This document shows, piece by piece, positions 2,669 to 29,622 of a stretch of DNA of 64,000 nucleotides; position 1 is the stretch's first letter; the number at the start of each line of letters is the position of its first letter. Position numbers and translations under genes: made by a program. The DNA is from an uncultured delta proteobacterium (lineage in GTDB: Bacteria; Desulfobacterota; Desulfobulbia; Desulfobulbales; Desulfocapsaceae): positions 156,556-220,555 of the forward strand of contig CAVWXN010000008.1 in the NCBI GenBank assembly GCA_963759125.1. The letters are read 5' to 3'. Under the pieces are notes generated by a model. The model was not told the origin of the DNA and did no database searches. It saw only the letters and a list, made by a program, of their open reading frames with translations.

Positions 2669-3033
2669 CGATTTTCCTTTATAGAATATTATCAGAGCAC
2701 CTTTTTATACTGCTTACCTTACCATGCCGTTGCGGGTGAGATATTTCAACTACAAAAGACATTTCAAACAGGCTGTTTCAGTTGTCCAGAAACTGATGAA
2801 GAACCACAGGGTCTGTACTCAATTAGACTGGCGATGCTTGAATATCCAATGGGTAATTTCAGGGAAAAATCGTGTGGTGCATGTCTTTGACATGAAAGAT
2901 CGCCAGATCAAACGTCTGAGGATTAGATATGGCATGGTCCGATACGTGAGCTTATTTATACTTATCAAGATCCATTGTAAAAAGAAAAACTGGTCATCAG
3001 TGCACTAAATTAACGGTTCAACTGGAGGCGATC

Positions 3034-3429: not shown

Positions 3430-3539
3430 GAACGGATGGGAGATAAAGCACGAATAAGTTTAAGACTGCTCCATAGAAAAACAGCTCGGCGGGGCGTTTT
3501 TGAAACAATGTGGATCGAGAGGATCAGAGATGTTTTAGT

Positions 3540-4170: not shown

Positions 4171-4253
4171 AGTATCCCTCACGTTATGGAGTTGTTGAGC
4201 CGAACAATCCATTCTGCCTCAACAAACAACCCGGGCGCTTTTCGATTATGAAG

Positions 4254-4320: not shown

Positions 4321-4397
4321 CTTTTCGGCAACCCTGCTACCAGACCATTCTGGCCAGTGGTTTTGCGTCCCTAGGTGACCCTAGGTTTGCCCTTTCG
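4321..4397 (-). promoter_or_regulatory. c-di-GMP-I (GEMM-I) riboswitch aptamer, copy 2
   Basis: Minus-strand RNA is CGAAAGGGCAAACCUAGGGUCACCUAGGGACGCAAAACCACUGGCCAGAAUGGUCUGGUAGCAGGGUUGCCGAAAAG, with the same core blocks as copy 1. The track ORF 4248-4430 overlapping it is rejected. Confidence 0.9.
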
Positions 4398-4420
4398 AAG
4401 AAGTTGTTTTGTTATCTTTT

Positions 4421-8610: not shown

Positions 8611-8618
8611 TATCTACC

Positions 8619-10623: not shown

Positions 10624-11259
10624 TTAATAAATCGTGATTGCCTGAGCCATAGTTATTTCATTTGTACCACAAACTTCAGTGTGTAAATAAATCTGTCCCC
10701 TTTGATCTTCCGTTTTCATCCCGACAGGGTTCATACCTTTTATAAAAACGCCAAGAAAATTTGCAATGGTATTGTTCTCGTAAATTACGTCTTCAACCTC
10801 AGTTTCATAGTCGCGTGCAATCTGCTCCGTTATGGCCGCTTTGACAGTTGCAAGAGTCGCGGTACAACTCCCAGAAACATTTTTACATCTATAAATAAAA
10901 TGGTTGTGCCTCTCTTCTTCCGAAAGACCAGGATCATCTCGATTCAAGTGAACGTCTACGATATGGGCCTCGACAAGCTCACCTTCACCTATTTTAAAAT
11001 TATAGACTCCAAATTTAGCATCACCTCGAAATTGGGTTCCTTCATTCAGCTCTACCGGATTCCAGATAGCCACAAGTGGAACTTCAAATCCATCCATATC
11101 GTCGACAGATTTATATGGTGGGGAAATGATCCCGTCCAGATAGCATTCACCAGGAATAATTTCCCATAATTCTGAGTGGTCAGGATTATCTGCCTGAATA
11201 ATTACTACCAGCCCGAAATAGAGTCCAGCCGCGCATAGTGCCGATACCAATTTCTTCAT
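10624..11259 (-). CDS. secreted protein of unknown function (intact paralog of 3540-4170), c-di-GMP-riboswitch controlled
   Basis: The likely start is ATG at 11259 (RBS GGAGGAG), inside track ORF 10624-11313. Signal peptide is MKKLVSALCAAGLYFGLVVIIQA. The N-domain is IIPGECYLDGIISPPYKSVDDMDGFEVPLVAIWNPVELNEG...FKIGEGELVEAHIVDVHL. The C-domain contains Cys pairs (CKNVSGSC, EVCG). Confidence 0.8.
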   Translation of the reverse strand: MKKLVSALCAAGLYFGLVVIIQADNPDHSELWEIIPGECYLDGIISPPYKSVDDMDGFEVPLVAIWNPVELNEGTQFRGDAKFGVYNFKIGEGELVEAHIVDVHLNRDDPGLSEEERHNHFIYRCKNVSGSCTATLATVKAAITEQIARDYETEVEDVIYENNTIANFLGVFIKGMNPVGMKTEDQRGQIYLHTEVCGTNEITMAQAITIY

Positions 11260-11333
11260 AATAACTCCTCCCATTTTGGGTTGATAGGCCAGAAAATTTA
11301 TTCTGCCCATCAAACACCTGAGCGTTTTAAATT

Positions 11334-11375
11334 ATGAAGAAGAAACGCCCATCTTCTTAGCCGAAGGTGGGCGTT
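11334..11375 (-). terminator. intrinsic terminator (expression platform of riboswitch copy 3; interrupted U-tract)
   Basis: Minus-strand hairpin ACGCCCACCUUC-GGCU-AAGAAGAUGGGCGU is followed by UUCUUCUUC, a weaker U-run than in copies 1 and 2. It lies 84 nt upstream of the ATG at 11259. Confidence 0.65.
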
Positions 11376-11398
11376 GCACTATAGACGGCAAAACCCCT

Positions 11399-11475
11399 CT
11401 TTTCGGCAGCCCGGCTGCCAGCTAGTGCTGGCCCGTGGCTTTACGTCCCTAGGTCGCCCCAGGTTTGCCTTTTCG
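11399..11475 (-). promoter_or_regulatory. c-di-GMP-I (GEMM-I) riboswitch aptamer, copy 3 (variant core)
   Basis: Minus-strand RNA is CGAAAAGGCAAACCUGGGGCGACCUAGGGACGUAAAGCCACGGGCCAGCACUAGCUGGCAGCCGGGCUGCCGAAAAG. The architecture is the same as in the other copies. The core shows two substitutions relative to copies 1 and 2: AGGGCAAAC becomes AAGGCAAAC, and ACGCAAAG becomes ACGUAAAG. Confidence 0.85.
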
Positions 11476-11497
11476 TAGAAGTTGTTCAGTTAACTAC

Positions 11498-11527
11498 AGT
11501 TTATTTTAAAAAAGACATATTTGTCAA
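11498..11527 (-). promoter_or_regulatory. sigma-70-type promoter of riboswitch cassette 3 (TTGACA-N18-TAAACT)
   Basis: Reverse complement gives TTGACA (11527-11522), an 18-nt spacer and TAAACT (11503-11498). Confidence 0.6.
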
Positions 11528-12159
11528 AAAATCGTCGCAATGTTAATGAATTATTCCTGTAATCCTGAGACAAGATTATATCAGCGGCTCTGCAAATTAA
11601 TTTATTTTTGATCGCTGATCTTCAGAAATCGATAATTTCATGATCAATCAAGACCGCTTATTTCATTCAATAATTAATACAGCCGGGCTGCCTCAAATTT
11701 GCAAGTTAACCGAAACATAAACTTGCCCTATATGGGTCTATAAGTCATTTTAGCATGGCCACGCGTCAAGGGATATTGTACGAAAGTACAATAAGTTAAA
11801 AAAATTATTCTTCATTATCTCCAATTTCGGTGCCGAAGGTGCCGAAATTGAAATTATGAAAAGTTTCTCTTGGGCAACAAAGGTTTCTCTTGGCAGCTCC
11901 AGACAAACACTGGGAACAGAACTCAAATAGAATCAGGAGACATATTAACCTGCAAAACTTCACCCATTATTAAAATTTTCAATGCACATCCAAAATCTCT
12001 TTCAGGCAAGTAATCTTCTAAGCCAAAATAGTAGAAAAACAGGAAACAGTTTCGGTTAGGTTATTGGCAAGAAAGAATAATCGTTAGTGCGGCACTATTA
12101 AGGTGGGGGCTAAACGGTGATGTCTGCAGGCACCCGGCGTAACCCAAACGTTAACACAT

Positions 12160-12741
12160 TTATTTTAATGGTTTTGTTATTCTTGATACCCAGAAACCGT
12201 AGGTCACAAAGCTTAATGATACAATTTGTTGAACAGCTAACAGTGGCTTATCCTGGACAAGCATAAGAGTTGCCATACTCCCGTTCATTAGCATGAAAAA
12301 CAACCAGCCCGTTCTATTGTTTTTGGCCAGTAGATAACTCCCCAATAAAAAACCTACCATAACTCCCATTTCTAAAAGCTGCGAAAAAGATGTGACCCCA
12401 CCATAATCAAATAGGCTGTAACCAACACCTAATGCTAAAGAACCGTAGGCGAAAAAAGAAGCAACTCTGTTAAATATTCTGGGTGGCGAGCTAGAGTTTT
12501 GATATGCCATATAAAGACCTAAAAACATGGATGGAACGCCGCCAGCTTCTATCGAAGCAGCGATCCAATTTTGCTCGCCTAGCAGTATTATCACCCAGGC
12601 TGGCACTCCTAAAATGTAAATTGCCCAACCATTAAGTTTTAATTTTCGTTTGAATTTTTGTTTTTTTCCCTCTGCAAGAGCAAACAATATTTTATTGATA
12701 AGGTAAAAACTACCTCCCCATATTTGTAATGCTACATCCAT
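12160..12741 (-). CDS. small polytopic membrane protein, possibly PnuC-like (nicotinamide-riboside-transporter fold) - tentative
   Basis: 193 aa with about 6-7 TM helices. An internal repeat with the pattern N..L......(K/N)...GW (INKILFALAEGKKQKFKRKLKLNGWAIYILG and GSYLLAKNNRTGWLFFMLMNG) is reminiscent of PnuC. The assignment rests on pattern recall only. Confidence 0.4.
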   Translation of the reverse strand: MDVALQIWGGSFYLINKILFALAEGKKQKFKRKLKLNGWAIYILGVPAWVIILLGEQNWIAASIEAGGVPSMFLGLYMAYQNSSSPPRIFNRVASFFAYGSLALGVGYSLFDYGGVTSFSQLLEMGVMVGFLLGSYLLAKNNRTGWLFFMLMNGSMATLMLVQDKPLLAVQQIVSLSFVTYGFWVSRITKPLK

Positions 12742-12836
12742 AGAGATCTTAATTTGGTGCTAAAGCTAGGATAATCTGCGAGGTTATGCGAGTGCCAAAT
12801 CGCTGAGTGAACGGGATTAAGCGCCGGGTTGTAAAA

Positions 12837-13631
12837 CTAAATTTTCAAAATACCTTCAATTGTTATTATGGCTTTTCCGGACAATAGTACACGATTGCTA
12901 TCCATTATTTTCATGTTCACAACTCCACCTCGTTCAGAAGCTTGAAATGCTGTCATAATAGACTTTTGAAGTATACCACTCCAGTAGTCTGCTAACGCAC
13001 AGTGGGTTGATCCTGTAACAGGATCCTCATGCACACCGATCCACGGAGCAAAGTTGCGGGAGATAAAATCGAACTCAGAGTGAGAAGATTCAGAAGTGAC
13101 AATGACTGAACGACCTGGAATACTCAGTAGTCCCTGGAAATCAGGTGATATTTCCCTAATCAGTCGCTCATTTTGCAGATGGAGAAAATCTTTTTCTCCA
13201 GCCTTTCCAGCAAAAATCACATCTTTCTCATCGATGCCAAGGTGCTGCAGCTTTATCATGTTTTTTGCTGCGGTCTTAACCTTTATCGCAGGAAAATCCA
13301 TTTCAACAAAATCATCTACTGCCTTAGCTGACAGCGAACCTGACAGAGTGTTGAACCGAATGGTTTGATTCTCTTTGATAAATTTCTTGTAGTAGAGCAC
13401 AGCCGTTGCAGCGAGGGTTGCATGGCCGCACAAGGCAACCTCAACCTTTGGTGAAAACCACCTGAGCCTCATCGTATCTAGTGAGCAGAATGCGGTTTCG
13501 GATACTCCCATTTCCATGGCAATATTCTGCATAGTTGTCTCATCAATCTCGTTTTCAAGAATACAAACCCCAGCTGGGTTTCCGGTGAATGGCTTATCCG
13601 TAAACGAATCTACTTGAAAGATATCGATCAT
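12837..13631 (-). CDS. PhzF-family isomerase
   Basis: 264 aa. The N-terminus MIDIFQVDSFTDKPFTGNPAGVCIL and the motifs ...CGHATLA...DPVTGSTHC... are typical of the PhzF/YddE family. Confidence 0.9.
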   Translation of the reverse strand: MIDIFQVDSFTDKPFTGNPAGVCILENEIDETTMQNIAMEMGVSETAFCSLDTMRLRWFSPKVEVALCGHATLAATAVLYYKKFIKENQTIRFNTLSGSLSAKAVDDFVEMDFPAIKVKTAAKNMIKLQHLGIDEKDVIFAGKAGEKDFLHLQNERLIREISPDFQGLLSIPGRSVIVTSESSHSEFDFISRNFAPWIGVHEDPVTGSTHCALADYWSGILQKSIMTAFQASERGGVVNMKIMDSNRVLLSGKAIITIEGILKI

Positions 13632-17015: not shown

Positions 17016-18359
17016 GTGAAAGTACACATGAAGATGAAACCAAGAACCTATTGGGGCGGTGCTGCATTCCTTGCCGTCCTGGCTGTTGCCTTGCCGGCAC
17101 TCGCCGAAGAAGTGAGTGTTGGCGATTCGGTCATTCACCTGGCCTATGCCCTCGACACCTTTTATTTCCTCATGTCCGGAGCCCTGGTCATGTGGATGGC
17201 AGCAGGATTTGCAATGCTTGAAGCGGGTCTCGTTCGCGGCAAGAACACCGTTGAAATTCTGACCAAGAACGTGGCGCTCTATTCGATCGCCTGTATCATG
17301 TATATGGTAGTTGGCTACAACATCATGTACGGTGGCGGCCCTAACGGCGTGATTCCCGGCCTCAGCTTTTTCCTCGGGGCTGACAACTCTGCTGGCGATG
17401 TTCTGAAAAGCGGAGGGGAGATCTATTACTCCGGCATGTCTGATTTCTTCTTTCAGGTTGTTTTTGTAGCCACCGCCATGTCGATCGTTTCCGGTGCCGT
17501 GGCTGAGCGCATGAAGCTCTGGGCATTCCTGATTTTTGCGGTAGTTATGACCGGTTTTATTTACCCGGTTCAGGGCTACTGGAAATGGGGCGGAGGCTTC
17601 CTCGACGCTCTTGGTTTCCTGGATTTTGCCGGATCCGGCGTTGTCCATCTCTGTGGTGCATCGGCAGCAATCGCAGGCGTTCTCCTTCTCGGCGCCCGAA
17701 AAGGTAAATACACCGATGGCAGGGTCAATGCTATACCCGGTGCCAATCTGCCCATGGCAACCCTGGGAACCTTCATTCTCTGGCTGGGCTGGTTTGGCTT
17801 CAACGGCGGCTCCGAGCTGATGATCTCCAATATAGACGAGGCCAATGCCGTTTCCTTGATCTTTGTCAACACCAATACCGCCGCTGCAGGTGGTCTGGTT
17901 GCTGCACTGCTGTTGTCACGGGCCTGGTTCGGCAAGGCTGATCTGACCATGGCTCTGAACGGCGCGCTTGCCGGCCTGGTCGCCATTACCGCTGAGCCTC
18001 TCACCCCGAGTCCACTGCTGTCCACCATCGTCGGCGCAATCGGCGGCCTTATAGTAGTGGCTTCCATCGTCTTCATGGATAAAGCCAAGATTGACGACCC
18101 TGTCGGTGCCATCTCGGTTCACGGAGTGGTCGGTCTCTGGGGACTGCTCGCCGTCTCTTTCACCAATCCTGAAGGCTCACTTGTAGCCCAGGTAATAGGC
18201 GCTGCGGTCATCTTTGGCTGGGTATTCGGCACCAGTTTTGTAACGTGGCTGATAATCAAGGTTGTCATGGGTATTCGGGTCAGCGAAGAAGAAGAAATGG
18301 AAGGCTGCGATGTCTCCGAATGTGGACTTGATGCCTATCCGGAATTCACCAGAGATTGA
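17016..18359 (+). CDS. amtB: ammonium transporter AmtB
   Basis: 447 aa. GTG start with an AGGAGG RBS 7 nt upstream. There is a signal-like N-terminus, 11 TM helices and Amt signature blocks (DFAGSGVVHLCGA, WLGWFGFNGGS). A PII gene follows. Confidence 0.95.
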   Translation: MKVHMKMKPRTYWGGAAFLAVLAVALPALAEEVSVGDSVIHLAYALDTFYFLMSGALVMWMAAGFAMLEAGLVRGKNTVEILTKNVALYSIACIMYMVVGYNIMYGGGPNGVIPGLSFFLGADNSAGDVLKSGGEIYYSGMSDFFFQVVFVATAMSIVSGAVAERMKLWAFLIFAVVMTGFIYPVQGYWKWGGGFLDALGFLDFAGSGVVHLCGASAAIAGVLLLGARKGKYTDGRVNAIPGANLPMATLGTFILWLGWFGFNGGSELMISNIDEANAVSLIFVNTNTAAAGGLVAALLLSRAWFGKADLTMALNGALAGLVAITAEPLTPSPLLSTIVGAIGGLIVVASIVFMDKAKIDDPVGAISVHGVVGLWGLLAVSFTNPEGSLVAQVIGAAVIFGWVFGTSFVTWLIIKVVMGIRVSEEEEMEGCDVSECGLDAYPEFTRD

Positions 18360-18365
18360 TCATAG

Positions 18366-18716
<351 letters not shown>

Positions 18717-18748
18717 CAGTATCTTTGCAACAACCTCCTCCACGAAGT

Positions 18749-18787
18749 GCCCCCTGTCGGTTTCGACCGATGGGGGGTACTTTGTTT
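18749..18787 (+). terminator. intrinsic terminator after glnK
   Basis: CCCCCTGTCGG-TTTCGA-CCGATGGGGGG hairpin followed by TACTTTGTTTT. Confidence 0.8.
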
Positions 18788-18983
18788 TGCCATTTATCTA
18801 GACTCGAGCGAGTTTATCGAAAAACAATAGCCAACCACCTACCAGCTCACCCCAAGGCCCCAGCGGATTTTATTTCGGTAGGGCCTTCTTTTTACTGCTT
18901 GCCTCATCATCGACCGTGCATACCTTGCTAAAGTATCCGGAAAAAAACGCTTTAATCTCACATATAGTCAAGGATTTTCAGCC

Positions 18984-20483
18984 ATGTCCACTCCCTACAG
19001 CCAGCTAGTTGATCACTTCACCAGCCTCTCCCATCTAGCACATTCCCTGACGTTTCTGCAGTGGGATCAACTGGTAATGATGCCGCCCCAGGGAAATGAC
19101 TCCCGTTCGGAGGCCATCGCCGAGTTGAGTTCGCTCTATCATGAACAGCTGATATCTCCTGAATTGGGTGAATTGCTGGCCAAGGCCGAGGCAGATGAGG
19201 TGGATACCGCTCGCCAAGCAAGTCTTAGAGAAATGGATCGCGAATATCGCTGGGCAACCTGCATACCGGCGGACCTGGTCAAGGCCAAATCGCTGGCCGG
19301 TTCAAAATGTGAACATGAGTGGCGCAGCCAGAGGCAGAAAAACGACTGGCCCGGTTTTTTGACAAACTTCAAAGAAGTCGTCAATCTTTCGAGACAGGAA
19401 GCCCAGGCCCGCCAGAATTGCAGCAACGAGAAATTTTCGACTCCTTATGACGCCCTGCTCGATCTCTACTGCACCGGTGACTCAAGCAGCATGATCTCTG
19501 AAATATTCACCAGCCTGAAAACCACCCTGCCACCTCTGATATCAGAAGCAGTGGAAAAACAATCCGGCAGAACACGCGAATTCAAAGGAACCTTTCAGAA
19601 AGAATCCCAGCAGCGGCTCAACAGAGTGCTGGCCGGCCTGCTTGGCTTTGATTTCGAGGCCGGCAGAATCGATGAAAGTTCCCATCCATTCAGCACAGGC
19701 GGCCACGGCGACCACCGAATCACTTCGAGATACCGGGACAACGATTTTGTCGATGCCCTCAAGGCAACTGCCCATGAAACTGGCCATGCCGCCTACGAGG
19801 GAGGGTTGCCGCAGAAATGGAAAAATCTGCCGCTGGGCCAGGCCCGCAATATGTCCATTCACGAGAGCCAGAGCCTGCTGTTTGAAAAACAGATCTTTCT
19901 GTCCAAACCGTTTTTAAAATTTTTCACTCCGGAAATCCATCGACACCTGGACAAAAGCAGATCTTATGACTGTGAACAGATCTGGCTGAACAGCATCAAG
20001 GTAAGTCCCTCATATATAAGGGTGGAAGCCGACGAACTCTGCTATCCTCTGCATGTTATCATCAGATACGAGATCGAGTCGGCCCTGATCAACGGTACGA
20101 TGGAAGCCGCTGAACTGCCTGAGATGTGGGATGAAAAGATGCAGACCTATCTTGGTCTTTCAACTGCAGGAAATTTTAAAGACGGCTGTCTGCAGGATAT
20201 TCATTGGACAGACGGATCTTTCGGCTACTTTCCCGCCTATACGATGGGAGCACTGAACGGAGCCCAGATATTCTCAGCCTTTCGGCGCCAACATAAGAAC
20301 TGGCAGGATCTTCTGGGAAATGGTGAAATCTCCACAATCCGCAACTGGCTGGAGGAAAGAATCTGGTCCAAAGGTCGATTGCTCTCCTCGCAGGAACTAA
20401 TGCAGTCTGCCACCGGCGAACCTACCAATCCCGACTATTTCATCGACTATTTGCAAGAGCGTTATCTGGAAGAGAAGTATTAA
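18984..20483 (+). CDS. M32 carboxypeptidase (carboxypeptidase Taq family)
   Basis: 499 aa. The motifs HPFS, HETGHAAYE (HExxH), HESQS and IRVEADELCYPLH are diagnostic for the M32 family. Confidence 0.9.
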   Translation: MSTPYSQLVDHFTSLSHLAHSLTFLQWDQLVMMPPQGNDSRSEAIAELSSLYHEQLISPELGELLAKAEADEVDTARQASLREMDREYRWATCIPADLVKAKSLAGSKCEHEWRSQRQKNDWPGFLTNFKEVVNLSRQEAQARQNCSNEKFSTPYDALLDLYCTGDSSSMISEIFTSLKTTLPPLISEAVEKQSGRTREFKGTFQKESQQRLNRVLAGLLGFDFEAGRIDESSHPFSTGGHGDHRITSRYRDNDFVDALKATAHETGHAAYEGGLPQKWKNLPLGQARNMSIHESQSLLFEKQIFLSKPFLKFFTPEIHRHLDKSRSYDCEQIWLNSIKVSPSYIRVEADELCYPLHVIIRYEIESALINGTMEAAELPEMWDEKMQTYLGLSTAGNFKDGCLQDIHWTDGSFGYFPAYTMGALNGAQIFSAFRRQHKNWQDLLGNGEISTIRNWLEERIWSKGRLLSSQELMQSATGEPTNPDYFIDYLQERYLEEKY

Positions 20484-21345: not shown

Positions 21346-22896
21346 TTACTTGGAGCCTCCGCCCCCCTCGGAAAGTTTTTCCATAACCTGGCTGAGATTG
21401 AAGCTGGCGGCTTTCTGGCTGGGCGGAAATTCCTTGAAAGTCTCGAGAAATTTGGCCACATAGGCCTGAGCCGGCACCAGCAGATAGGGCCGGTCGAGAA
21501 ACCAGTCGTCATAGGTATTGGAGGTTACCATACCGCGCTCGTAAGGGTCGCGGCGCAGGTTTATCAGCAGTGGAATACGCAGCGTAACAAACGGTTCGCG
21601 CCAGGCCTGAAAAGTGGCCTCGGCCCGCTGCTCCATGAAAATGACCTTCCAGTCCATATAGCGCAGCGCGGTCAGGTCGCCGTCGTCGGAGAAGTAAAAG
21701 ATGTCCTTGCGCGGCCCTGATTCCTCCTGGCCGGTGAGATAGGGCAGCAAGTTATAGCCGTCCAGATGGACCTTGTAGGTCCGATTGATGGCTGAGACGC
21801 CGCCCTGTTTCAACTGATCTTTGATATCTGGCGCACCGGCAGCGGCCAGAAAAGTTGGCAGCCAGTCCATATGGTGCATTATCTCATTGGACCAGGTTCC
21901 CTGCTCTATTTTTCCAGGCCAGCGCACCATGGCCGGCACCCGCCAGCCGCCTTCCCAGTTGGTGTTTTTCTCGCCCCGAAACGGCGTCATTGCGGCATCG
22001 GGCCAGGTGTTCATATGGGGGCCGTTATCGGTTGAATAGAAGACGATGGTGTTGTCGGCGATGCCAAGTTCATCCAGAGCCTCGAGGAATTTGCCGATGT
22101 GCATGTCATGCTCCACCATGCCGTCTGAATACTCGTCCTGGCCGGAAATCCCCCGCAATTCCTCTTTCACATGGGTGCGAAAATGCATGCGGGTACCGCT
22201 CCACCAGACAAAGAATGGCTTATCAGCCTGAACCTGGCGCTGGATAAAATCAAGGGCCGCGTCCGAGGTTTCATCATCGACCGTCTCCATCCGCTTCTTC
22301 GTCAATGGGCCGGTGTCTTCGATACGTCCGTCGGCATATGAGTGAATGACCCCACGGGGGCCGAACCGTTTGCGAAATTCCGGATTCTTAGGATAGTCTT
22401 CGTTTTCCGGCTCCTCCTCTGCATTGAGGTGGTAGAGGTTGCCGAAAAATTCGTCGAAGCCATGATTGGTCGGCAGGTGCTCATCCTTGTCGCCCAAATG
22501 GTTTTTACCGAACTGGCCCGTGGCATAGCCCTGGGCTTTGAGCAGCCCGGCGATGGTCGGGTTCGCCTCCTGCATACCTTCTTCGGCACCCGGCAGACCT
22601 ACCTTTGAGAGACCCGTTCGAAACACAGACTGGCCCGTGATAAAGCTCGAACGACCGGCGGTGCAGCTCTGCTCGCCGTAATAATCGGTAAAAGTCATGC
22701 CCTCTTCGGCAATCCGGTCGATGTTCGGGGTCTTGTATCCCATCAGGCCGTGGGTGTAATAACTGATGTTGGACTGGCCGATATCATCACCCCAGACGAC
22801 CAGGATATTGGGTTTATCGGCACTGAGTGCTGGCGCGGCAGCCGCCAGCGCCAAGGCAGTCGTCAGCACTAATAAACGTTTATGAACATTTATCAT
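21346..22896 (-). CDS. arylsulfatase (formylglycine-dependent sulfatase family), secreted
   Basis: 516 aa. Signal peptide is MINVHKRLLVLTTALALAAAAPALSA. Sequence NILVVWGDDIG...QSCTAGRSSFITG contains the C-x-A-x-R formylglycine motif. Confidence 0.9.
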   Translation of the reverse strand: MINVHKRLLVLTTALALAAAAPALSADKPNILVVWGDDIGQSNISYYTHGLMGYKTPNIDRIAEEGMTFTDYYGEQSCTAGRSSFITGQSVFRTGLSKVGLPGAEEGMQEANPTIAGLLKAQGYATGQFGKNHLGDKDEHLPTNHGFDEFFGNLYHLNAEEEPENEDYPKNPEFRKRFGPRGVIHSYADGRIEDTGPLTKKRMETVDDETSDAALDFIQRQVQADKPFFVWWSGTRMHFRTHVKEELRGISGQDEYSDGMVEHDMHIGKFLEALDELGIADNTIVFYSTDNGPHMNTWPDAAMTPFRGEKNTNWEGGWRVPAMVRWPGKIEQGTWSNEIMHHMDWLPTFLAAAGAPDIKDQLKQGGVSAINRTYKVHLDGYNLLPYLTGQEESGPRKDIFYFSDDGDLTALRYMDWKVIFMEQRAEATFQAWREPFVTLRIPLLINLRRDPYERGMVTSNTYDDWFLDRPYLLVPAQAYVAKFLETFKEFPPSQKAASFNLSQVMEKLSEGGGGSK

Positions 22897-23168
22897 GGTT
22901 CCTCCTTTTCAAGATTGAAATAGTTAGATGCAGGGGACAGATAATCCCCCTCAAATGTCAAATATGTGTGGAAAAAAGAAGAAGTCAATCGGTGAGTAGA
23001 AAAAACTCAAAGAAACCGTGAAATACCCTAAAAATGACAAGGGATATAAATTTTACCTAACGACATAAGTTCAAGACGCTTAATCGGGCAAGGATGGCGA
23101 GTAGCCGGGGGAGCAGCCTTGCAGCACTGTGAGCGTGCAACGCAGCGAGTGGCGCAGCCGTGCCTGTT

Positions 23169-23454
23169 AACCACGGTGGCACCGCCGGCATTGGTGAGAC
23201 GGGCCGATTTCTCAAAACTGGTCCCCTCTTCAGCCGAACTTACAACTTGAATCTCACCCTGCATTCACTGCGACATTTGCTCCAAAACCTACCCGCTGGC
23301 GTTGATCCCGGAACGTAGCGGGGGTTGCTCCGCCTCTTGCTGGAACTGTGGCGGATGTGTTGACAATTGTCCCACCGAGGCCCTTGTGTTTCACCGGGAC
23401 TCCAGCCGTTACCCTTGGGTAACACCTCCTCCCCAGATCGTTACCAATCAGTAA
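23169..23454 (+). pseudogene. decayed small 2x[4Fe-4S] ferredoxin-like gene (pyruvate:ferredoxin oxidoreductase delta-subunit-like), no start codon, frameshifted
   Basis: One frame reads ISPCIHCDICSKTYPLALIPERSGGCSASCWNCGGCVDNCPTEALVFHRD...*. The first cluster motif has lost its fourth Cys (C..C..C...YP), while the second is intact (C..C..C...CP). A different upstream frame reads GIGETGRFLKTGPLFSRT, resembling the PorD N-terminal KTG.WR block. No ATG/GTG with an RBS is present. Confidence 0.4.
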
Positions 23455-23577
23455 CTCTTCTTGTAGCATAACCACACATCACTTTGATATTATTGTACAT
23501 ATTTATTTGGAATCATATTTGCAAGATTTTACCAGATCTGCTCTTTCACCGCTCACACTGACAGGCAAGGAGGGCTC

Positions 23578-24144
23578 ATGCACCAGGAGTCTAAGCAAAA
23601 ATACTACGCCCATCTGATCCGGCTGATCATCGCCCTGGTGGTCGTGATCCTTATCGGCCTGGGGGCCAGACTGCTGTTTATGCCGGAGGGCATGGGAGAT
23701 TATGGCCACTACCGTGGAGCCGATATCACTGATCAGAAAGCGGTACCGGTTCGCCTGGGTACCAACGAGGCCTGTTTTCAATGCCATCAACCGATCAGGA
23801 CCATTCATAAAAACGGGGTGCATAAAACGGTATCTTGTGAGGTCTGCCATGGACTCTACGGTGATCATATCGCCGAGGGCAAGAAAGTCGGTACCCTGCC
23901 AGTGATGCGGGGCGACGATCTTAAGGATCTGTGCCTGCGCTGTCACAACAAGATAATTACCGCCCGCCCACGCCAGGAAATCAAAGTAATAGGAATGCCG
24001 GAACACCTTCAGGATCAGCATGTACAGCTGACCCACACCTGCGATCAGTGTCACATGGTTCACGACCCGCTGCTGTGGATCAACCAGGCCAAGGAGATTG
24101 TTGGTGTAGCCACGGTGAAACCACTCAAGGATTCCTCACCGTGA
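23578..24144 (+). CDS. membrane-anchored tetraheme c-type cytochrome
   Basis: 188 aa with RBS AAGGAGGG. There is one N-terminal TM helix (LIRLIIALVVVILIGLGARLLF) and four CxxCH motifs (CFQCH, CEVCH, CLRCH, CDQCH). Confidence 0.85.
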   Translation: MHQESKQKYYAHLIRLIIALVVVILIGLGARLLFMPEGMGDYGHYRGADITDQKAVPVRLGTNEACFQCHQPIRTIHKNGVHKTVSCEVCHGLYGDHIAEGKKVGTLPVMRGDDLKDLCLRCHNKIITARPRQEIKVIGMPEHLQDQHVQLTHTCDQCHMVHDPLLWINQAKEIVGVATVKPLKDSSP

Positions 24145-24200
24145 TTTGCTGAGGTGAGAGGCAACCCATATCTGATGCCCGCTGAAAAGGAGAGGCAAGC

Positions 24201-24992
24201 ATGGTGGATTTAGAAAAAGAGATCAGTCTTGATCGGCGCCAGTTTATAAAGAACGTGCTGGGCGGTACCATCGCCGGTTCCCTGCTTCTGGTCATCCCGC
24301 TCAGCGCCAGGGAGTTGGAACAGATACCAGGAATGAAAGACGAGGACAGCATCTTCACCGAGAAAAACTTTGTCTTCGTCGTTGATATCACCGCCTGCAT
24401 CGGCTGTGGGTCCTGCTGCATCGCCGATAAAGCCGAATACAAGGTTCCCGACGGCTACTACAGAACCTGGGTCGAGCGCTACATCATCGACGACCACGAC
24501 GGTGTTCATGTGGATTCACCAGACGGAGGGCTCGGCGGTTACACTAAGCCTCGCGAGGGACTGCCACATCCGATCAGGGACACCTTTTTTGTCCCCAAAC
24601 TCTGCAATATGTGTGAAAAGCCAAGTTGCGTGCAAGTCTGTCCGGTAGGCGCCACCTATCAGACCAAGGACGGTTTTGTGCTGGTCGATAAGACGCGCTG
24701 TGTCGGCTGTTCCTATTGTGTGCAGGCCTGTCCCTATTCGATTCGTTTCATCAACCCGATTAGCCATACGGCAGAAAAATGCACCTGGTGCTACCACCGT
24801 GTCCGCCAGGGTCTGCTTCCCGCTTGCGTGGCCGTGTGCCCAACCGGCGCTCGCAAGTTCGGCGATCTCGATGATCCGCAATCAGAGGTGGCCCAGCTCC
24901 TGCGCCAGCCCCATGTAATCTCGGTACTGAAACCCGATATGGGTAACGAGCCGGCCCTTCATTACCTGGGCCTTAGAAGGGAGGTCGTCTAA
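24201..24992 (+). CDS. Tat-exported 4x[4Fe-4S] iron-sulfur subunit, NrfC/PsrB/DmsB type
   Basis: 263 aa. The twin-arginine motif is DRRQFIKNVLGG. There are four Cys clusters (CIGCGSCC, CNMCEKPSCVQVCP, CVGCSYCVQACP, CTWCYHRV...CVAVCP). Confidence 0.9.
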   Translation: MVDLEKEISLDRRQFIKNVLGGTIAGSLLLVIPLSARELEQIPGMKDEDSIFTEKNFVFVVDITACIGCGSCCIADKAEYKVPDGYYRTWVERYIIDDHDGVHVDSPDGGLGGYTKPREGLPHPIRDTFFVPKLCNMCEKPSCVQVCPVGATYQTKDGFVLVDKTRCVGCSYCVQACPYSIRFINPISHTAEKCTWCYHRVRQGLLPACVAVCPTGARKFGDLDDPQSEVAQLLRQPHVISVLKPDMGNEPALHYLGLRREVV

Positions 24993-26212
24993 TGAATGGT
25001 GCTATCCAACATGGCGATACCGTCTCGTCTCTGACCAACTACGTATTTCCCAACGATTTTCACGTACACTGGTCGCTGATGATCGTGCTTTACCCCTATA
25101 TCACCGGCATTGTCGCGGGAGCATTCATCGTTTCATCGCTCTATCATGTATTCGGCATCAAGGCCTTGAGACCCATCTCCCGCTATTCCCTGATATTCGC
25201 CCTGGCCTTTCTGGCCTGCGCCACCTGGCCGCTGCTCCTTCACCTCGGCCACCCGGAGCGCTCATACTCGATGTTTCTGACCCCCAACCCTAGTTCTGCA
25301 ATGGCCGGGTTCGGTTTTATCTACACGGCCTATCTCATCCTGCTTTTACACGAGATCCTGTTCATCTACCGGCCGACGATGGTCGGCTTGTGGCACGAAT
25401 CTTCGGGCTTGAAGAGAAGGTTCTATGCCTTTCTCGCTTTTTTCAACGACAATCTTTCCAAAGAAGCACTGACCCTCGATAACCGCATCATCAGCTTTCT
25501 CGCCGGGCTCGGCATACCGATGGCCTGTGTCCTGCACGGCTATGTCGGTTTCATCTTCGGAGGCGTTAAGGCCAACCCATTATGGGCCACTCCACTCATG
25601 CCGGTTATCTTCCTGCTCTCAGCCTGCGTATCCGGGATTTCCGGTATCATTCTCACCTACGTCCTGATCATGAAGTTCAAGGGCAAACCAGTTGATATGG
25701 ACTGCATACGCACTTCAATCAAGTTCCTCTGGGGCTTTTTCATCCTCGATTTCGTCTTCGAGATGCTCGAGGTGTTCAGTCACGCCTACATGGCGACACA
25801 CCACTGGCATGTCCTGGAAAACCTCTATTGGGGACCGCTCTATACCACTTACTGGGTCCTCCAGGTAAGAATCTTTTCAGTCATACCTTTCATTCTGCTC
25901 GGCATCCTCTGTCTGTTCAAACTCAAAGACAGGGTTGTACTGTTTTTTGCCCCGCTCGTATCGCTGATGATCCTTATCCAAGTGCTGCTGATGCGCTGGA
26001 ACGTGGTTATCGGCGGGCAACTGATGTCCAACTCAACCAGGGGACAGGTGTCCTTTGTGCCCCATTGGGAAGGCCGTGAAGGGATAATCGCAGCGCTCGT
26101 GGTGATGACCGCCCCCTGGGTCATTTTATTTATACTCAGTAAAATTTTTCCCCTGTGGCTCGACGACCAGCCGGCCGACCAGCAAGTGTCGGAGGCTTCA
26201 GCCCCAACTTGA
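24992..26212 (+). CDS. NrfD/PsrC-family integral membrane quinol-interacting subunit
   Basis: 406 aa. The start overlaps the stop of the FeS subunit (TAATG). It has about 10 predicted TM helices and follows an NrfC-like gene, as in the NrfCD/PsrBC/ActBC/DsrOP modules. Confidence 0.85.
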   Translation: MNGAIQHGDTVSSLTNYVFPNDFHVHWSLMIVLYPYITGIVAGAFIVSSLYHVFGIKALRPISRYSLIFALAFLACATWPLLLHLGHPERSYSMFLTPNPSSAMAGFGFIYTAYLILLLHEILFIYRPTMVGLWHESSGLKRRFYAFLAFFNDNLSKEALTLDNRIISFLAGLGIPMACVLHGYVGFIFGGVKANPLWATPLMPVIFLLSACVSGISGIILTYVLIMKFKGKPVDMDCIRTSIKFLWGFFILDFVFEMLEVFSHAYMATHHWHVLENLYWGPLYTTYWVLQVRIFSVIPFILLGILCLFKLKDRVVLFFAPLVSLMILIQVLLMRWNVVIGGQLMSNSTRGQVSFVPHWEGREGIIAALVVMTAPWVILFILSKIFPLWLDDQPADQQVSEASAPT

Positions 26213-26369
26213 TAAGAGTAACGAGGAGGATGGGACAACCATTCTATATAAGAGTAAGGGCGCCCTGCAGATGTATTAAAGACAAGGAGGTGATGACGTA
26301 CTAAAAGATCTTGGGCTGCCAATTTGTTTTATCACCCAAAAGAATTTAAACAATTGACTGGAGGAGAAG

Positions 26370-27956
26370 ATGCAATCTTTAGGTAGAGTGCTTTTCTTAA
26401 CTCTGCTAGCGTTCTTCATTGCCACCCCCCTCTATGCCGCCACCAAGGTATCGATGGATGTGAGCAACGAAAGAAACGTGCAGATGAATGTAAAATGCGT
26501 GAATTGCCATCTGAAAGAGAACAATTCACTGGTCCAGCAGTGGCGTCATTCCCCACATGCTGCTGGAAAAGACGGCCAGGTTGGCTGCTATAACTGCCAT
26601 GCGGCGGAAGAGGGAGAAATCACCGGCTACGAACACGAGGGTGCGTTTATCAAAACCGTACTGAGCCCCAAAGATTGCGGCTACTGTCACGAGCGTGAAA
26701 CAAAGGAGCAGCAGGCTTCTCATCATGCCGCTGCCGGACAGATCATGGCCTCTCTGGACAACGTGCTGGGCGAGGTAATCTGCTCGCTTGAGGACAAGGC
26801 CGATGCTGCAAACGGCTGTTGGCAATGTCATGGCTCCATTCTGACGGTTCTTAAAGACGACAGCGGAAAGCCATTGAAGAGGGCCTCCGGAGCCGTCATG
26901 TTCGATCCGATGACCTATCCCAACTCAGGAATGGGTCGCCTCAACCCGGACGGGTATGCGGGAACCTGTAATGCCTGCCACTCCAAGCACAGTTTCCGTG
27001 CCTCGATGGCACGCCAGCCAGAAAACTGCGGTAAGTGCCATCTTGGTCCTGATCATCCGCAGATAGAAGTTTACAACGAATCCAAGCATGGCATAACCTA
27101 TTACTCGGCAATGAAAGACGCTGGTTTCAACGGCATGAACATTATGAAGGCTGGCCAATGGGTCCTCGGCAAAGACTACTACTATGCCCCGACCTGCTCG
27201 ACCTGCCATATGGGCGCCTTCGTGAAACCCAACGGCGGAGAAGCACAAAACACCCATAATGTCGGCGACCGCCTCTCCTGGACCCTGCGTCCCCAGGTTT
27301 CGGTCAAGCTGAACCGGGCGGTATTTGCCGATGGAACCGAGAAGGACATCCCCGGTGATATTCCGCCGCAGCCTGGCTCTATGATCAAGTACAATGAATT
27401 CAAACAGGTCGACGGTACGTGGAAGCAGGTACCGGTTGAGAAAGAAGCCGTCGAGGTCATCAGCTGGGAACAGCGCCGGGAGAACATGAAAGGTGTATGC
27501 AATCAGTGTCACGGCAAACAGAAGATCGAGAATTTCTACGATCAGTTCGATGCCCTGGTGGTTACCTACAACGAAAAATTCGCCAAACCCGCCAAAATGC
27601 TTTACGGGATGGCTTCAGAAGATGGACTTGTGTTCGGTTCGACCTTCCACACCGAGCTTGGCTGGCACTGGTGGGAACTCTGGCATCATGAAGGACGACG
27701 GGCAAGGCACGGTGCCTCTATGGGTGGTCCCGACTACACCCATTGGCACGGTATGTACGATGTCGCCCACAACTTCTACTTCAAGTTCCTACCCGAGTTG
27801 ATGCATCTGGCTGAGAAAAAAGGTATGTCCGAGAAGTACGAAAAGGTTGTTGGAGAGATGCTTGCCAAGCCTGAACATGCCTGGTACAAGGAAGGCTTTG
27901 ACGCAGATGTGATGAAAGCAATCAAAGCCGAACAGCAGGATCGTTACAAGCAGTAA
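26370..27956 (+). CDS. periplasmic octaheme c-type cytochrome, hydroxylamine-oxidoreductase (HAO)-like family (tentative subfamily)
   Basis: 528 aa with a Sec signal peptide (LTLLAFFIATPLYAA). There are eight CxxCH motifs (CVNCH, CYNCH, CGYCH, CWQCH, CNACH, CGKCH, CSTCH, CNQCH). The heme spacing and the C-terminal block WWELWHHEGRRARHGASMGGPDYTHWHG match my recollection of HAO/epsilon-Hao-type proteins. Confidence 0.8.
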   Translation: MQSLGRVLFLTLLAFFIATPLYAATKVSMDVSNERNVQMNVKCVNCHLKENNSLVQQWRHSPHAAGKDGQVGCYNCHAAEEGEITGYEHEGAFIKTVLSPKDCGYCHERETKEQQASHHAAAGQIMASLDNVLGEVICSLEDKADAANGCWQCHGSILTVLKDDSGKPLKRASGAVMFDPMTYPNSGMGRLNPDGYAGTCNACHSKHSFRASMARQPENCGKCHLGPDHPQIEVYNESKHGITYYSAMKDAGFNGMNIMKAGQWVLGKDYYYAPTCSTCHMGAFVKPNGGEAQNTHNVGDRLSWTLRPQVSVKLNRAVFADGTEKDIPGDIPPQPGSMIKYNEFKQVDGTWKQVPVEKEAVEVISWEQRRENMKGVCNQCHGKQKIENFYDQFDALVVTYNEKFAKPAKMLYGMASEDGLVFGSTFHTELGWHWWELWHHEGRRARHGASMGGPDYTHWHGMYDVAHNFYFKFLPELMHLAEKKGMSEKYEKVVGEMLAKPEHAWYKEGFDADVMKAIKAEQQDRYKQ

Positions 27957-27980
27957 TTTATACCTGACTGACCTTAACCA

Positions 27981-28018
27981 GCCCCGGTATTCCGGATAAG
28001 GATACCGGGGCATTTTTC
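27981..28018 (+). terminator. intrinsic terminator after the octaheme cytochrome gene
   Basis: GCCCCGGTAT-TCCGGATAAGG-ATACCGGGGC hairpin followed by ATTTTT. Confidence 0.85.
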
Positions 28019-28031
28019 TGGAACTGCCAAA

Positions 28032-28634
28032 ATGAGAAACCATTTAATATTTATTACCATATTAGTGAGCGGGCTTCTGTTGAACAGAGCAGCGATCGGT
28101 TCACCCATCGACGAGGAAATTGATCGTGTCGCAGGCGAGGTCGCAGAGCTTAAGCTTGGTTTCGGCGACTATGTAGTAGGTAAGGCTCTCACCATGGAGC
28201 AAAAGGAAATGGCCCGCCAGAACCCAATCAAAAAATCCTTGCGAGGCACCTACAAATTCCAGGATAGCGATACTTTTGTGATCGCCGCCAACAACGACGA
28301 TATCGTTCTTGGGGTTTACCGACATTACCCGGAAAGCACGATGGCGGACATAAAGAAGATAATCGGCGGCCTGATGTTTGAATATGGTGAACCGACAGCC
28401 ACCGCCCACGATAAGATGATTTACTGGACCTATGACAAGACAGGAAAAATTGACCAGGATACCTTCGAGTTCCAGAAAAGCAATGGCGGCACAAAATCGC
28501 TGGCTACCATTAAATTTTCAAGCTCTGAACTAGTCAGCGGTGCAGCCAAGGAGGATGCACCCCCAATATCAGCCTATTTGATGATTACTTCAGATCCGCT
28601 TTCCCAACTCTTTCTTGCCCAGACGAAACAGTAA
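28032..28634 (+). CDS. hypothetical secreted protein
   Basis: 200 aa with signal peptide MRNHLIFITILVSGLLLNRAAIG. I recognise no family. It is translationally coupled (TAATG) to the next ORF. Confidence 0.55.
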   Translation: MRNHLIFITILVSGLLLNRAAIGSPIDEEIDRVAGEVAELKLGFGDYVVGKALTMEQKEMARQNPIKKSLRGTYKFQDSDTFVIAANNDDIVLGVYRHYPESTMADIKKIIGGLMFEYGEPTATAHDKMIYWTYDKTGKIDQDTFEFQKSNGGTKSLATIKFSSSELVSGAAKEDAPPISAYLMITSDPLSQLFLAQTKQ

Positions 28635-28879
28635 TGGTTAGACAATCCCCATTGAAAACCTCGATTCTTCTGCTTGCAGCCATGCTGCTGTTCACTTCCT
28701 GTGCAGCCACGACAACTGCTCCTGAGGAATCCGTTAAGTATCCGCGTAAACCAGCCGACAACCCGGAAAGGAAGTCTGGCCAGGCTATGCTCTTCTACGA
28801 GGCTGCCGAAGAGGACGCAGATCCGGGTAATGTCATCGTCATCCCGCCTGAAGAGAAAAAGAAGGAGAACATCCAGTAG
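28634..28879 (+). CDS. small lipoprotein (hypothetical)
   Basis: 81 aa with the lipobox-like signal LLLAAMLLFTSC. The mature part is acidic and Pro-rich. Confidence 0.5.
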   Translation: MVRQSPLKTSILLLAAMLLFTSCAATTTAPEESVKYPRKPADNPERKSGQAMLFYEAAEEDADPGNVIVIPPEEKKKENIQ

Positions 28880-28919
28880 GCAACAGGCAGCTTCTCGGTT
28901 CGGATCGCCATTAGGAAAA

Positions 28920-29249
28920 TTAAGAACACCGTCGGCAGTGATACTTGCGGTGGCTTTCGAGCGTCTTACAAATGTTATCCGCCGTTATTTGCAACCCTCT
29001 GGCCCGGTAGATAGCCACCAACTGCCCTTCAAGCAGATTGGCCTTCTCCAGTAAGAGCACCCTGCTCGTCTCATCGAGGGAAGAATAGGCCTCGATGATC
29101 AGATCCTTGATTCGCTCCAGGCTCAGCTCTCCGTTGCCTTCTTCAGGCAACGATTCTAACGATACCGGCAGGTACTGACGACTCACGGGAGTAGTTAGCT
29201 TCAGCAGGCGGACAAGTTTATTGGGAGTGATTTTCTTTAACAGGCTCAT
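28920..29249 (-). CDS. hypothetical protein
   Basis: 109-aa ORF with no clear SD and no recognised family. It is kept only because of its ORF length and intergenic position. Confidence 0.35.
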   Translation of the reverse strand: MSLLKKITPNKLVRLLKLTTPVSRQYLPVSLESLPEEGNGELSLERIKDLIIEAYSSLDETSRVLLLEKANLLEGQLVAIYRARGLQITADNICKTLESHRKYHCRRCS

Positions 29250-29622
29250 CTGTGTCGATCTGAATTTCGGGCTCTAATGAACTGTGTGGGCGGTTCGTCG
29301 CTGTTGACAAAATGGATCACGGCAGGGTACCTGCTGGTACTTGGCTGCATCCGATTTTACATATACAAAATTCGGACCATTCTGCTCTCTACCAGACCTG
29401 TCCGACAGAGCCTGCCAAATTACAACCTTAATCACCCATCAAGTTATTTGAGTCGTCCATTTCGACTAAACCTTCTACTAATTTACACAACACTTAGTGC
29501 ACCAAAGCGTCAGTTTGTGACGATTTTTGTCGGTTCATTTTGGACTTCATTAGGTGATGGCTGTTGACAGGGGTATTGCTAGCTCATAAGGTGAAAAGAA
29601 GATTGATTCTGTTGGCTCGAAG

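Follow-up and report, generated by a model that had tools for sequence, protein, structure and literature searches.

A conserved five-gene module joining NrfCD-type subunits to an octaheme cytochrome of the HAO superfamily in an uncultured Desulfocapsaceae bacterium: a putative menaquinol:nitrite oxidoreductase

Introduction

Nitrate ammonification in the absence of NrfA was shown for Thermosulfurimonas dismutans and Dissulfuribacter thermophilus (Slobodkina et al. 2017, PMC5276818). The same work described a locus of four genes, lying within an 11-gene nap cluster, for a transmembrane (TM) multiheme cytochrome with homology to HaoA, a member of the NrfD family, a 4Fe-4S protein, and a TM cytochrome c; the locus was read as possibly serving nitrite reduction or, alternatively, tetrathionate or polysulfide metabolism. 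T. marina and strain F29 carry the same locus (Allioux et al. 2022, PMC9676032). Here, we analyze a locus of this type in an uncultured delta proteobacterium (family Desulfocapsaceae; assembly GCA_963759125.1), found in a 64,000-nucleotide stretch of contig CAVWXN010000008.1 (positions 156,556 to 220,555 of the forward strand), referred to below as the window. It comprises genes for a tetraheme cytochrome (cyt4), an NrfC-like iron-sulfur (FeS) subunit, an NrfD-like membrane subunit, an octaheme cytochrome c (OCC; gene occ), and a fifth protein, d200. An earlier annotation made from the letters of the window (the sequence-only reading) had described the first four genes as an unusual hybrid respiratory module.

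Several other described systems resemble parts of this locus. In MccACD/SirACD, an octaheme catalytic subunit is served by an NrfC/NrfD-type pair, and a review of the NrfD family lists 14 complexes, none with an HAO-type partner (PMC8076601). IhOCC, described as an octaheme nitrite reductase, groups with HAO and HDH and is without the P460 tyrosine cross-link (PMC9250108). εHao is cited in 10.1101/2020.02.22.960823 as reducing nitrite to ammonium. An octaheme of cable bacteria (pOCC/pMHC) is encoded directly after napFDDAGHB; the authors could not find a partner that would link it to quinol (10.1101/2020.02.22.960823). The architecture analyzed here has thus been published as annotation and hypothesis, and is not catalogued as a complex.

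Results

Gene Layout of the Module

The features of the window and of related loci are collected in Table 1. The open reading frame (ORF) list, Pfam matches, and motif counts confirmed the four genes of the sequence-only reading, with the features ascribed to them. The fifth gene, which is conserved in relatives, had been missed. In cyt4, a single N-terminal TM segment spans residues 16-34, and the four CxxCH motifs use up all eight cysteines. The FeS subunit has a twin-arginine motif, DRRQFIK, and 16 cysteines arranged as four groups; the ATG start codon of the NrfD-like gene overlaps its stop codon as TAATG. The octaheme contains a signal peptide and eight CxxCH motifs. All five ORFs are intact, and each has a Shine-Dalgarno sequence. 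When all non-overlapping ORFs of the window were scanned, CxxCH motifs were confined to the cyt4 and octaheme genes; because no other ORF in the 64 kb carries one, the clustering of heme motifs is not due to chance.

Table 1. Positions of module genes and other features in the window and in related loci (L numbers)
Sequence	Feature	Position	Strand	Remarks
Window	Tetraheme cytochrome c, cyt4	23578-24144	+	188 amino acids (aa), membrane-anchored, 4 CxxCH
Window	NrfC/PsrB/TtrB-type FeS subunit, nrfC	24201-24992	+	263 aa, Tat motif, Fer4_11
Window	NrfD-family integral membrane subunit, nrfD	24992-26212	+	406 aa, PF03916
Window	Octaheme cytochrome c, occ, HAO superfamily	26370-27956	+	528 aa, exported, 8 CxxCH; putative catalytic subunit
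Window	Hairpin and U-tract, intrinsic terminator or attenuator	27981-28018	+	between occ and fifth gene
Window	Fifth gene, d200	28032-28634	+	exported 200-aa protein; homologs downstream of occ in relatives
Window	napH 3'-end relic	23260-23457	+	65 codons; tblastn against L001 NapH
Window	GC-rich stretch	~23090-23210		in spacer upstream of module; nature not assigned
Window	Ammonium transporter and PII/GlnK-like protein	17016-18716	+	447 aa (Amt-like by sequence) and 112 aa
Window	c-di-GMP-I-GGC variant riboswitch aptamer	1333-1410	+	upstream of small gene 1587-2012 (+)
Window	c-di-GMP-I-GGC variant riboswitch aptamer	4323-4400	-	upstream of small gene 3799-4212 (-)
Window	c-di-GMP-I-GGC variant riboswitch aptamer	11401-11478	-	upstream of small gene 10624-11313 (-)
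Window	occ-d200 hairpin site	27957-28031
L001	occ-d200 hairpin site	9588-9659
L003	occ-d200 hairpin site	8579-8723
L008	occ-d200 hairpin site	8591-8670
L021	occ-d200 hairpin site	8585-8690
L082	occ-d200 hairpin site	10636-10684
L001	Tll0287-like kinase	1-12
L003	Tll0287-like kinase	1716-4051
L009	Tll0287-like kinase
L013	Tll0287-like kinase
L018	Tll0287-like kinase	2302-4185
L022	Tll0287-like kinase
L082	Tll0287-like kinase	17501-19635
L007	Clade-A octaheme	6995-8587		60% identical
L082	Porin-like gene (Alginate_exp)	11280-12851		between module and nap
L082	Tetraheme, NapM-like	12917-13291		124 aa, precedes napA
L001	Tetraheme, NapM-like	439-813		124 aa, precedes napA

Conservation of the Module and Exchange of Octaheme Partners

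The octaheme family is large, with more than 8000 matches among 90%-identity clusters, 1414 clusters at 50% identity, and members in at least 594 species-representative genomes. We surveyed the 80 best genomic loci and the closest metagenomic relative, to which loci from Thermosulfurimonas (L082) and Sulfurovum (L084) were added. The order tetraheme-FeS-NrfD-octaheme was kept in 25 of 26 related loci from public genomes and metagenomes. Of the 23 loci whose octahemes are closest (~53-91% identity over the tree columns), 22 have cyt4, nrfC, nrfD, and occ collinear on one strand; in two of these 22 (L004 and L010), the module is cut by contig ends. Using phmmer, cyt4 was found 5' of nrfC in 22 surveyed loci, and equivalents are present in L082 and L084. 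The single exception, L007 (Desulfococcaceae bacterium HSG8), has an octaheme of the same clade without cyt4, nrfC, nrfD, or d200 as neighbors and with a 1436-aa non-heme ORF upstream; it may be an orphan copy or one that was rearranged.

A neighbor-joining tree of 69 octahemes (481 aligned columns, NeHAO as the outgroup, 100 bootstraps) placed the NrfCD-linked octahemes, that of the window included, in a single clade, A, with a support of 100/100. Its hosts are Desulfobulbaceae (Desulfobulbales), Desulfobacteraceae/Desulfobacula, other Thermodesulfobacteriota, Arcobacteraceae (Arcobacter), and Sulfurimonadaceae, as well as Thermosulfurimonas and Sulfurovum. The window has the five collinear genes typical of clade A, and its octaheme lies inside the clade. 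In clade A, the partner genes (tetraheme, NrfC, and NrfD) stand upstream of occ. Three other arrangements were verified with Pfam: a Rieske protein and cytochrome b upstream of occ in clade B, a NapC/NirT tetraheme (PF03264) downstream of occ, as in εHao-HaoB, in clade C (bootstrap 99), and a small TPR membrane protein downstream of occ in clade D (bootstrap 98). Thus, the octaheme family is a tidy case of partner-module exchange, with each arrangement in its own clade. Because clades A and B are sister groups, and Rieske/cytochrome b partners occur at two further tree positions, this pair may be the ancestral partner, judging from the distance tree.

These data change the standing of the locus. 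The link from an HAO-type octaheme to NrfCD through a tetraheme, as proposed in the sequence-only reading, is supported by family membership and conserved gene order. Its statement that reductive HAO-family octahemes are normally partnered by a NapC/NrfH-type tetraheme holds for clade C of the same family, in which NapC/NirT partners occur; clade A uses NrfCD. The module is not rare, as the word "unusual" had implied: its gene order recurs across several phyla in a monophyletic clade, and was published earlier (PMC5276818, PMC9676032). That reading would have given way to a gene order both common and functionally assigned; the order is common, and its function stands in the literature as a hypothesis. 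The Thermosulfurimonas homolog P0079 (59% identity) shows the order cyt4-FeS-NrfD-OCC-d200-like followed by napMADGH, and the window module is a locus of this Thermosulfurimonas/Dissulfuribacter (TDIS_0606-0609) type.

Family Assignment and Active Site of the Octaheme

The octaheme matches PF13447. Its closest solved structure is IhOCC (4QO5), with HMMER E values of 2e-43 for the single sequence and 4.8e-54 for a 20-sequence profile, followed by reductive anammox HAOr (6H5L, 4e-18) and by HAO, HDH, and HOX (1e-11 to 1e-15); taken together, the values for HAO, HDH, and HAOr span 1e-10 to 1e-18. Its sequence matches in the PDB were to these members of the HAO family alone. An AlphaFold2 model based on a 20-sequence alignment was poor, with a predicted local distance difference test score (pLDDT) of 54.9 and values below 50 in the heme core, and was used just to rank Foldseek matches and to read how the C-terminal helices are arranged. 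Foldseek ranked 4qo5 above 6h5l, 6hif, and 1fgj; the top seven matches were all of the HAO family, and NrfA and ONR were marginal (E 0.04-0.3). No similarity to MccA or Otr was found by HMMER or Foldseek. A motif scan revealed neither CxxCK nor CX15CH, the absence of the latter having been noted correctly in the sequence-only reading. The sole long-spaced cysteine match, CX11CxxCH, involves C138; a role of C138 as an MccA-like extra cysteine was rejected, the residue being present in 5 of 24 clade-A sequences. By sequence comparison, the octaheme is assigned to the HAO superfamily, on its IhOCC/εHao-like reductive side, and not to MccA, Otr, ONR, or NrfA.

In HMMER alignments, D228-H229 corresponds to the catalytic D267-H268 over heme 4 of NeHAO, and R307 to distal Tyr334. 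The pocket Asp, His, and Arg are invariant in 67 of 67 aligned family members, so that an invariant Arg307 occupies the place of the distal Tyr334 of oxidative, P460-type HAO and HDH. The profile alignments end before the site of the cross-linking tyrosine, Tyr467 of NeHAO, which we verified within GGWTYTEGWG of 4FAS. The octaheme has GGPDY(456)THWHG in the loop that joins C-terminal helices 2 and 3, the topological equivalent of the HAO Tyr467 loop. The column of Y456 contains Phe in Arcobacteraceae (L018) and His in Sulfurimonadaceae (L023), both in clade A, and Phe or Trp elsewhere in the family; column 458 is variable (His in the window protein), and column 459 is invariably Trp. As Tyr is invariant in none of the candidate columns, a P460 cross-link conserved in the family is unlikely, and a reductive enzyme is indicated; the window protein, with its Tyr456, may nevertheless form such a link.

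Partner Subunits

The FeS subunit matches Fer4_11 (E 9.5e-28), and its closest solved chain is PsrB (2VPW_B, E 7.8e-49). Its best NCBIfam matches are TtrB (219 bits), NrfC, and DsrO, all under the equivalog cut-offs. The NrfD-like subunit matches PF03916 with E 9.7e-35 (121 bits against a cut-off of 25.8), and has ~9-10 hydrophobic segments and no heme motif. Its scores against NCBIfam models are far under the cut-offs (NrfD TIGR03148, 53 of 348 bits; DsrP, 39 of 350; QrcD, 23 of 570; HybB and HmcC also weak), and phmmer matched it to no PDB chain; it is therefore a distinct NrfD subfamily. The tetraheme matches Cytochrom_c3_2, with weak c7 and NrfB-like matches and, in Pfam, no match to NapC/NirT (PF03264). 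Over hemes 1-3, it is similar to the triheme domain at the N terminus of TvNiR, an octaheme nitrite reductase (E 6e-5); ActA of alternative complex III is a further, faint match. By analogy with the position of NrfB in E. coli NrfABCD, we propose that cyt4 may act as an electron wire.

The Fifth Gene and the Hairpin Preceding It

Using an iterated HMM, homologs of d200 were found 12-242 nt 3' of occ in 21 clade-A loci and in none of the surveyed loci from other octaheme clades (loci given for the homologs are L001-L023, L035, L082, and L084). The Thermosulfurimonas homolog matches at E 3.5e-17 and extends the gene across phyla. The protein has a signal peptide and no Pfam or NCBIfam match, and its 44 clusters in a 5.8-billion-protein database are all hypothetical. 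An AlphaFold2 model of high confidence (pLDDT 89.4) has no fold relative in the PDB, the best Foldseek match having E 0.013 and a TM-score of at most 0.26. The model suggests that d200 may be a new fold specific to the respiratory module, and we propose that it is a clade-specific accessory protein or fifth subunit.

The strong terminator placed after the octaheme gene in the sequence-only reading was borne out: within 22800-29300, the hairpin at 27981-28011 ranks first among terminator-like sites, with a 12-bp stem that includes eight GC pairs and is followed by a T-run. The folding energy of the region is -25.4 kcal/mol (z = -3.5). Comparably strong hairpins (z -3.5 to -7.6) occupy the same occ-d200 position in L001, L003, L008, L021, and L082; in six of six lineages tested, the hairpin is GC-rich, usually with a U-tract. 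Because the hairpin recurs although the sequences are unrelated, structure at this junction appears to be under selection, which suggests conserved attenuation, transcript-end formation, or an mRNA-stabilizing end before d200.

Link to Nitrate Reduction and History of the Locus

In the closest relative, L001 (90% identical octaheme), napA-napD-napG-napH lies directly upstream of the module on the same strand, and napADGH is likewise directly upstream in L002. In L021 and L082, an Arcobacter and Thermosulfurimonas, nap lies downstream. In the window, the 5' neighbor is a sulfatase gene on the opposite strand, followed by a 680-bp spacer that includes a GC-rich stretch (Table 1). The spacer, apparently empty and passed over in the earlier annotation, contains a relic of napH that aligns in frame with residues 231-295 of L001 NapH (58% identity, E 5e-19), retains both Cys motifs and the original stop codon, and has no start codon. 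Nucleotide synteny with L001 begins inside napH (window 23260 = L001 4887), and the napH-cyt4 intergenic region is kept and aligns with L001. No napA or napG was found in the whole window, nor any nap gene other than the relic. Together with the relic at the start of synteny, this indicates that nap has been deleted in the window lineage. The ratios of nonsynonymous to synonymous substitution rates (dN/dS) against L001 are 0.041 for nrfC, 0.039 for nrfD, and 0.051 for occ. Even with nap lost, the module has stayed under strong purifying selection.

A histidine kinase whose periplasmic sensor domain is of the heme-c, Tll0287-like kind and an OmpR-type regulator adjoin the module in ~7 clade-A loci (Table 1). 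The kinase may be a signal sensor for the module; the pair was not found in the window. Thermosulfurimonas has a porin-like gene that separates the module from nap, and a NapM-like tetraheme precedes napA there and in L001.

Other Features of the Window

Upstream of the module, at a distance of ~5 kb, are genes for an ammonium transporter and a PII/GlnK-like protein; in Deferribacter, ammonium transporters close to nap-hao clusters have been remarked on (PMC6896113). Elsewhere in the window, three riboswitch aptamers score 60-64 bits, over the Rfam gathering threshold, each upstream of a small gene. The encoded proteins start with a hydrophobic segment that is probably a signal peptide; two of the three have a similar N-terminal region, and may be paralogs under riboswitch control.

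Discussion

Based on the above, we propose that the five gene products would constitute one respiratory module at the periplasmic face of the inner membrane. The heme-less NrfD-family subunit would oxidize menaquinol, and electrons would pass to the four FeS clusters of the Tat-exported NrfC/PsrB-like subunit, then to the four hemes of the membrane-anchored tetraheme, in the role of NrfB, and then to the eight-heme chain of the HAO-fold octaheme of the IhOCC/εHao reductive type. There, nitrite, and probably hydroxylamine or NO too, would be reduced to ammonium at five-coordinate heme 4. In the ancestor of the window lineage, the module stood directly after napADGH, and nitrate would have been converted to nitrite and then to ammonium; nap having since been deleted, the module now most likely reduces nitrite on its own, in respiration or detoxification. 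NrfHA works in this way in sulfate reducers that do not respire nitrate.

The sequence data show the gene content, family membership, conservation, synteny, napH relic, and purifying selection; from them we infer that the proteins form a complex, which way electrons flow, what the substrate is, and any coupling to energy conservation. That the module proteins form a quinol-to-octaheme electron chain appears highly probable. As an overall explanation, we favor a menaquinol:nitrite oxidoreductase, and consider it reasonably probable that nitrite is the substrate, because nap is adjacent to the module in relatives, a napH relic precedes it in the window, the pocket is of the Asp-His-Arg type, and the nearest characterized relatives are reductive. 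The substrate can therefore be narrowed down further than the sequence-only reading had supposed in calling it not deducible. A broader proposal, which we make tentatively, is that the module is a distinct respiratory complex missing from the NrfD catalogue, an HAO-fold menaquinol:nitrite oxidoreductase with a fifth subunit of non-PDB fold, and possibly the long-sought ammonifying reductase of NrfA-less bacteria capable of DNRA (the dissimilatory reduction of nitrate to ammonium), such as Thermosulfurimonas, Dissulfuribacter, Sulfurovum, and Arcobacter relatives.

A number of observations weigh against nitrite reduction. For clade A as a whole, the assignment of nitrite as substrate comes from sequence comparison. 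The physiological role of IhOCC, the closest solved relative, is unknown, and the protein is reduced by a native hydrogenase (PMC4429474). The FeS subunit scores highest against TtrB and PsrB, which are subunits of sulfur-compound reductases. A nap cluster was found within 7-9 kb in just 4 of 26 clade-A loci, and a large Desulfobacteraceae/Desulfobacula subgroup is without nap nearby. The pocket geometry is read from alignments, the structural model of the octaheme being poor. The window octaheme itself carries Tyr456, a possible cross-link position, and the register of NeHAO Tyr467 shifted with the method: it differed between MAFFT on C-terminal domains, MAFFT on full-length sequences, and motif matching, this residue falling opposite Y456, H458, or W459.

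Four alternatives were considered, and are taken here in descending order of weight. In the first, which we hold to be unlikely, architecture and electron flow are the same, and the enzyme would act physiologically on a sulfur compound, be it tetrathionate, sulfite, thiosulfate, or polysulfide. Octaheme cytochromes of the HAO superfamily are often promiscuous in vitro. The TtrB and PsrB matches of the FeS subunit, the sulfur-cycling Desulfobacterota and Campylobacterota hosts, and the lack of nearby nap in most clade-A loci all fit such a substrate, which was offered explicitly as an alternative by Slobodkina et al. (PMC5276818). The octaheme, however, has no MccA-type CX15CH motif, its C138 is not conserved, and it resembles neither MccA nor Otr. 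Moreover, the Asp-His-Arg pocket is common to sister-clade octahemes that adjoin napA (L032, L068, L069, L071, L072, and L080), and the napH relic is present in the window itself.

The second alternative reverses the flow: a P460-type HAO would oxidize hydroxylamine or another reduced compound and pass electrons through the tetraheme and NrfCD to the quinone pool, in the way that Qrc serves cytochrome c3. This is quite improbable in anaerobic hosts without an ammonia-oxidation context, for a module that is linked to nitrate reductase genes and an octaheme that has Arg in place of HAO distal Tyr334 and whose closest characterized relatives are reductive. It is true that Tyr456 occupies the topological position of HAO Tyr467, in a GGxxYTxxxG motif that matches NeHAO, that the Asp-His couple is HAO-like where IhOCC has Asp-Val, and that NrfD modules such as Qrc can be quinone reductases (PMC8076601). 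But Tyr456 is replaced by Phe or His within the same clade and by Phe or Trp elsewhere, and the other registers put Tyr467 opposite the invariant Trp or the variable His.

A dedicated quinol module for each octaheme is a hallmark of terminal reductases, as in NrfABCD and MccACD (PMC8076601), and the pocket residues are strictly invariant in all clades. Both points make it very improbable that the octaheme is a non-catalytic periplasmic electron hub between the quinone pool and periplasmic or outer-membrane partners, an idea prompted by IhOCC, with its in vivo role unknown and its reduction by hydrogenase (PMC4429474), by the porin-like gene after the module in Thermosulfurimonas, and by cable-bacteria relatives discussed as periplasmic cytochromes. 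Finally, decay of the module into a non-functional leftover after the loss of nap, which the napH fragment directly upstream, the lack of a sigma-70-like promoter match on the + strand upstream of cyt4, and the absence of the Tll0287-type sensor/regulator pair from the window could suggest, is the least credible alternative, given five intact ORFs with good Shine-Dalgarno sequences, dN/dS values of 0.04-0.05, a preserved napH-cyt4 intergenic region, and the many clade-A loci, the majority, that function without adjacent nap.

If the module is a menaquinol:nitrite oxidoreductase, the octaheme family would have repeatedly swapped its quinol-oxidizing partner, between Rieske/cytochrome b, NapC/NirT, and NrfCD. 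The module is a strong candidate for the enzyme of cultured nitrate ammonifiers that are NrfA-less, and is widespread in sulfur-cycling Desulfobacterota and Campylobacterota. Confirmation would add a new entry to the NrfD-type energy-transducing complexes and a clear case in which partner modules were exchanged around a single catalytic multiheme scaffold. It would also provide better DNRA gene markers for metagenomes, as such organisms would be missed in nrfA-based surveys. The window itself adds modest information, namely another copy in which the nitrate reductase genes were lost and the module kept; the partner switching, the Asp-His-Arg pocket, and the protein of no known fold emerge from comparative data in addition to the window.

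Comparison with Known Systems

The published locus of the TDIS_0606-0609 type is described as four genes, the fifth not being noted there, and is nap-linked, whereas the window has the napH relic alone. The rest of the module finds partial counterparts in several systems. IhOCC of the archaeon Ignicoccus hospitalis is ~22-30% identical to the window octaheme and has Asp-Val where the latter has Asp-His, as in HAO; reviews covering archaeal cytochromes and enzymes that turn nitrite into ammonia give no information on its gene neighborhood, and no NrfCD context is reported for it there. The εHao-HaoB arrangement of clade C has in common with the window module a reductive HAO-family octaheme fed from the quinol pool, often linked to nap. 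It differs in having a NapC/NirT tetraheme downstream, while no such tetraheme adjoins the window module, in which NrfCD and a non-NapC tetraheme stand upstream; the two belong to separate, well-supported clades. The octahemes of the Rieske/cytochrome b clade B are 48-50% identical to that of the window and share its invariant pocket residues and a quinol-oxidizing membrane module upstream, which in their case consists of a Rieske protein and cytochrome b, with no d200 homolog.

Compared by description only, the cable-bacteria pOCC/pMHC and BOGUAY_0691 of orange Maribeggiatoa are relatives that are likewise nap-linked octahemes, with Desulfobulbaceae hosts, for which conversion of nitrite to ammonium has been proposed or shown; the window octaheme, in contrast, has a dedicated NrfCD-tetraheme module. 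Two further comparisons were rejected. The papers on Desulfurivibrio describe a CxxCK TaNiR-like or NrfA-like enzyme, and the cable-bacteria "dsrOhPh-tetrahaem / pACIII" genes have, by description, a different order (TMH1-DsrOh-DsrPh-tetrahaem), no octaheme, and an NrfD homolog near DsrP.

Two characterized systems have an NrfC/NrfD-type pair. In MccACD, the catalytic subunit is also an octaheme; unlike MccA, the window octaheme has no CX15CH and no detectable similarity to it by HMMER or Foldseek, its predicted active heme lies in the C-terminal module, as in HAO, and not in the N-terminal module, as in MccA (PMC9250108), and the module includes an extra tetraheme and a fifth gene. E. coli NrfABCD, as laid out in PMC8076601, follows the same wiring logic, with electrons passing from NrfD (quinol) to the four FeS clusters of NrfC, to the multiheme wire NrfB, and to a periplasmic multiheme nitrite reductase. 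The components differ: the putative catalytic subunit of the window is an HAO-fold octaheme with all hemes in CxxCH motifs, whereas NrfA is a CxxCK pentaheme; the proposed wire is a membrane-anchored tetraheme, whereas NrfB is a soluble pentaheme; and the NrfC and NrfD homologs, which score far under the NrfC and NrfD equivalog cut-offs, are accompanied by an extra fifth protein.

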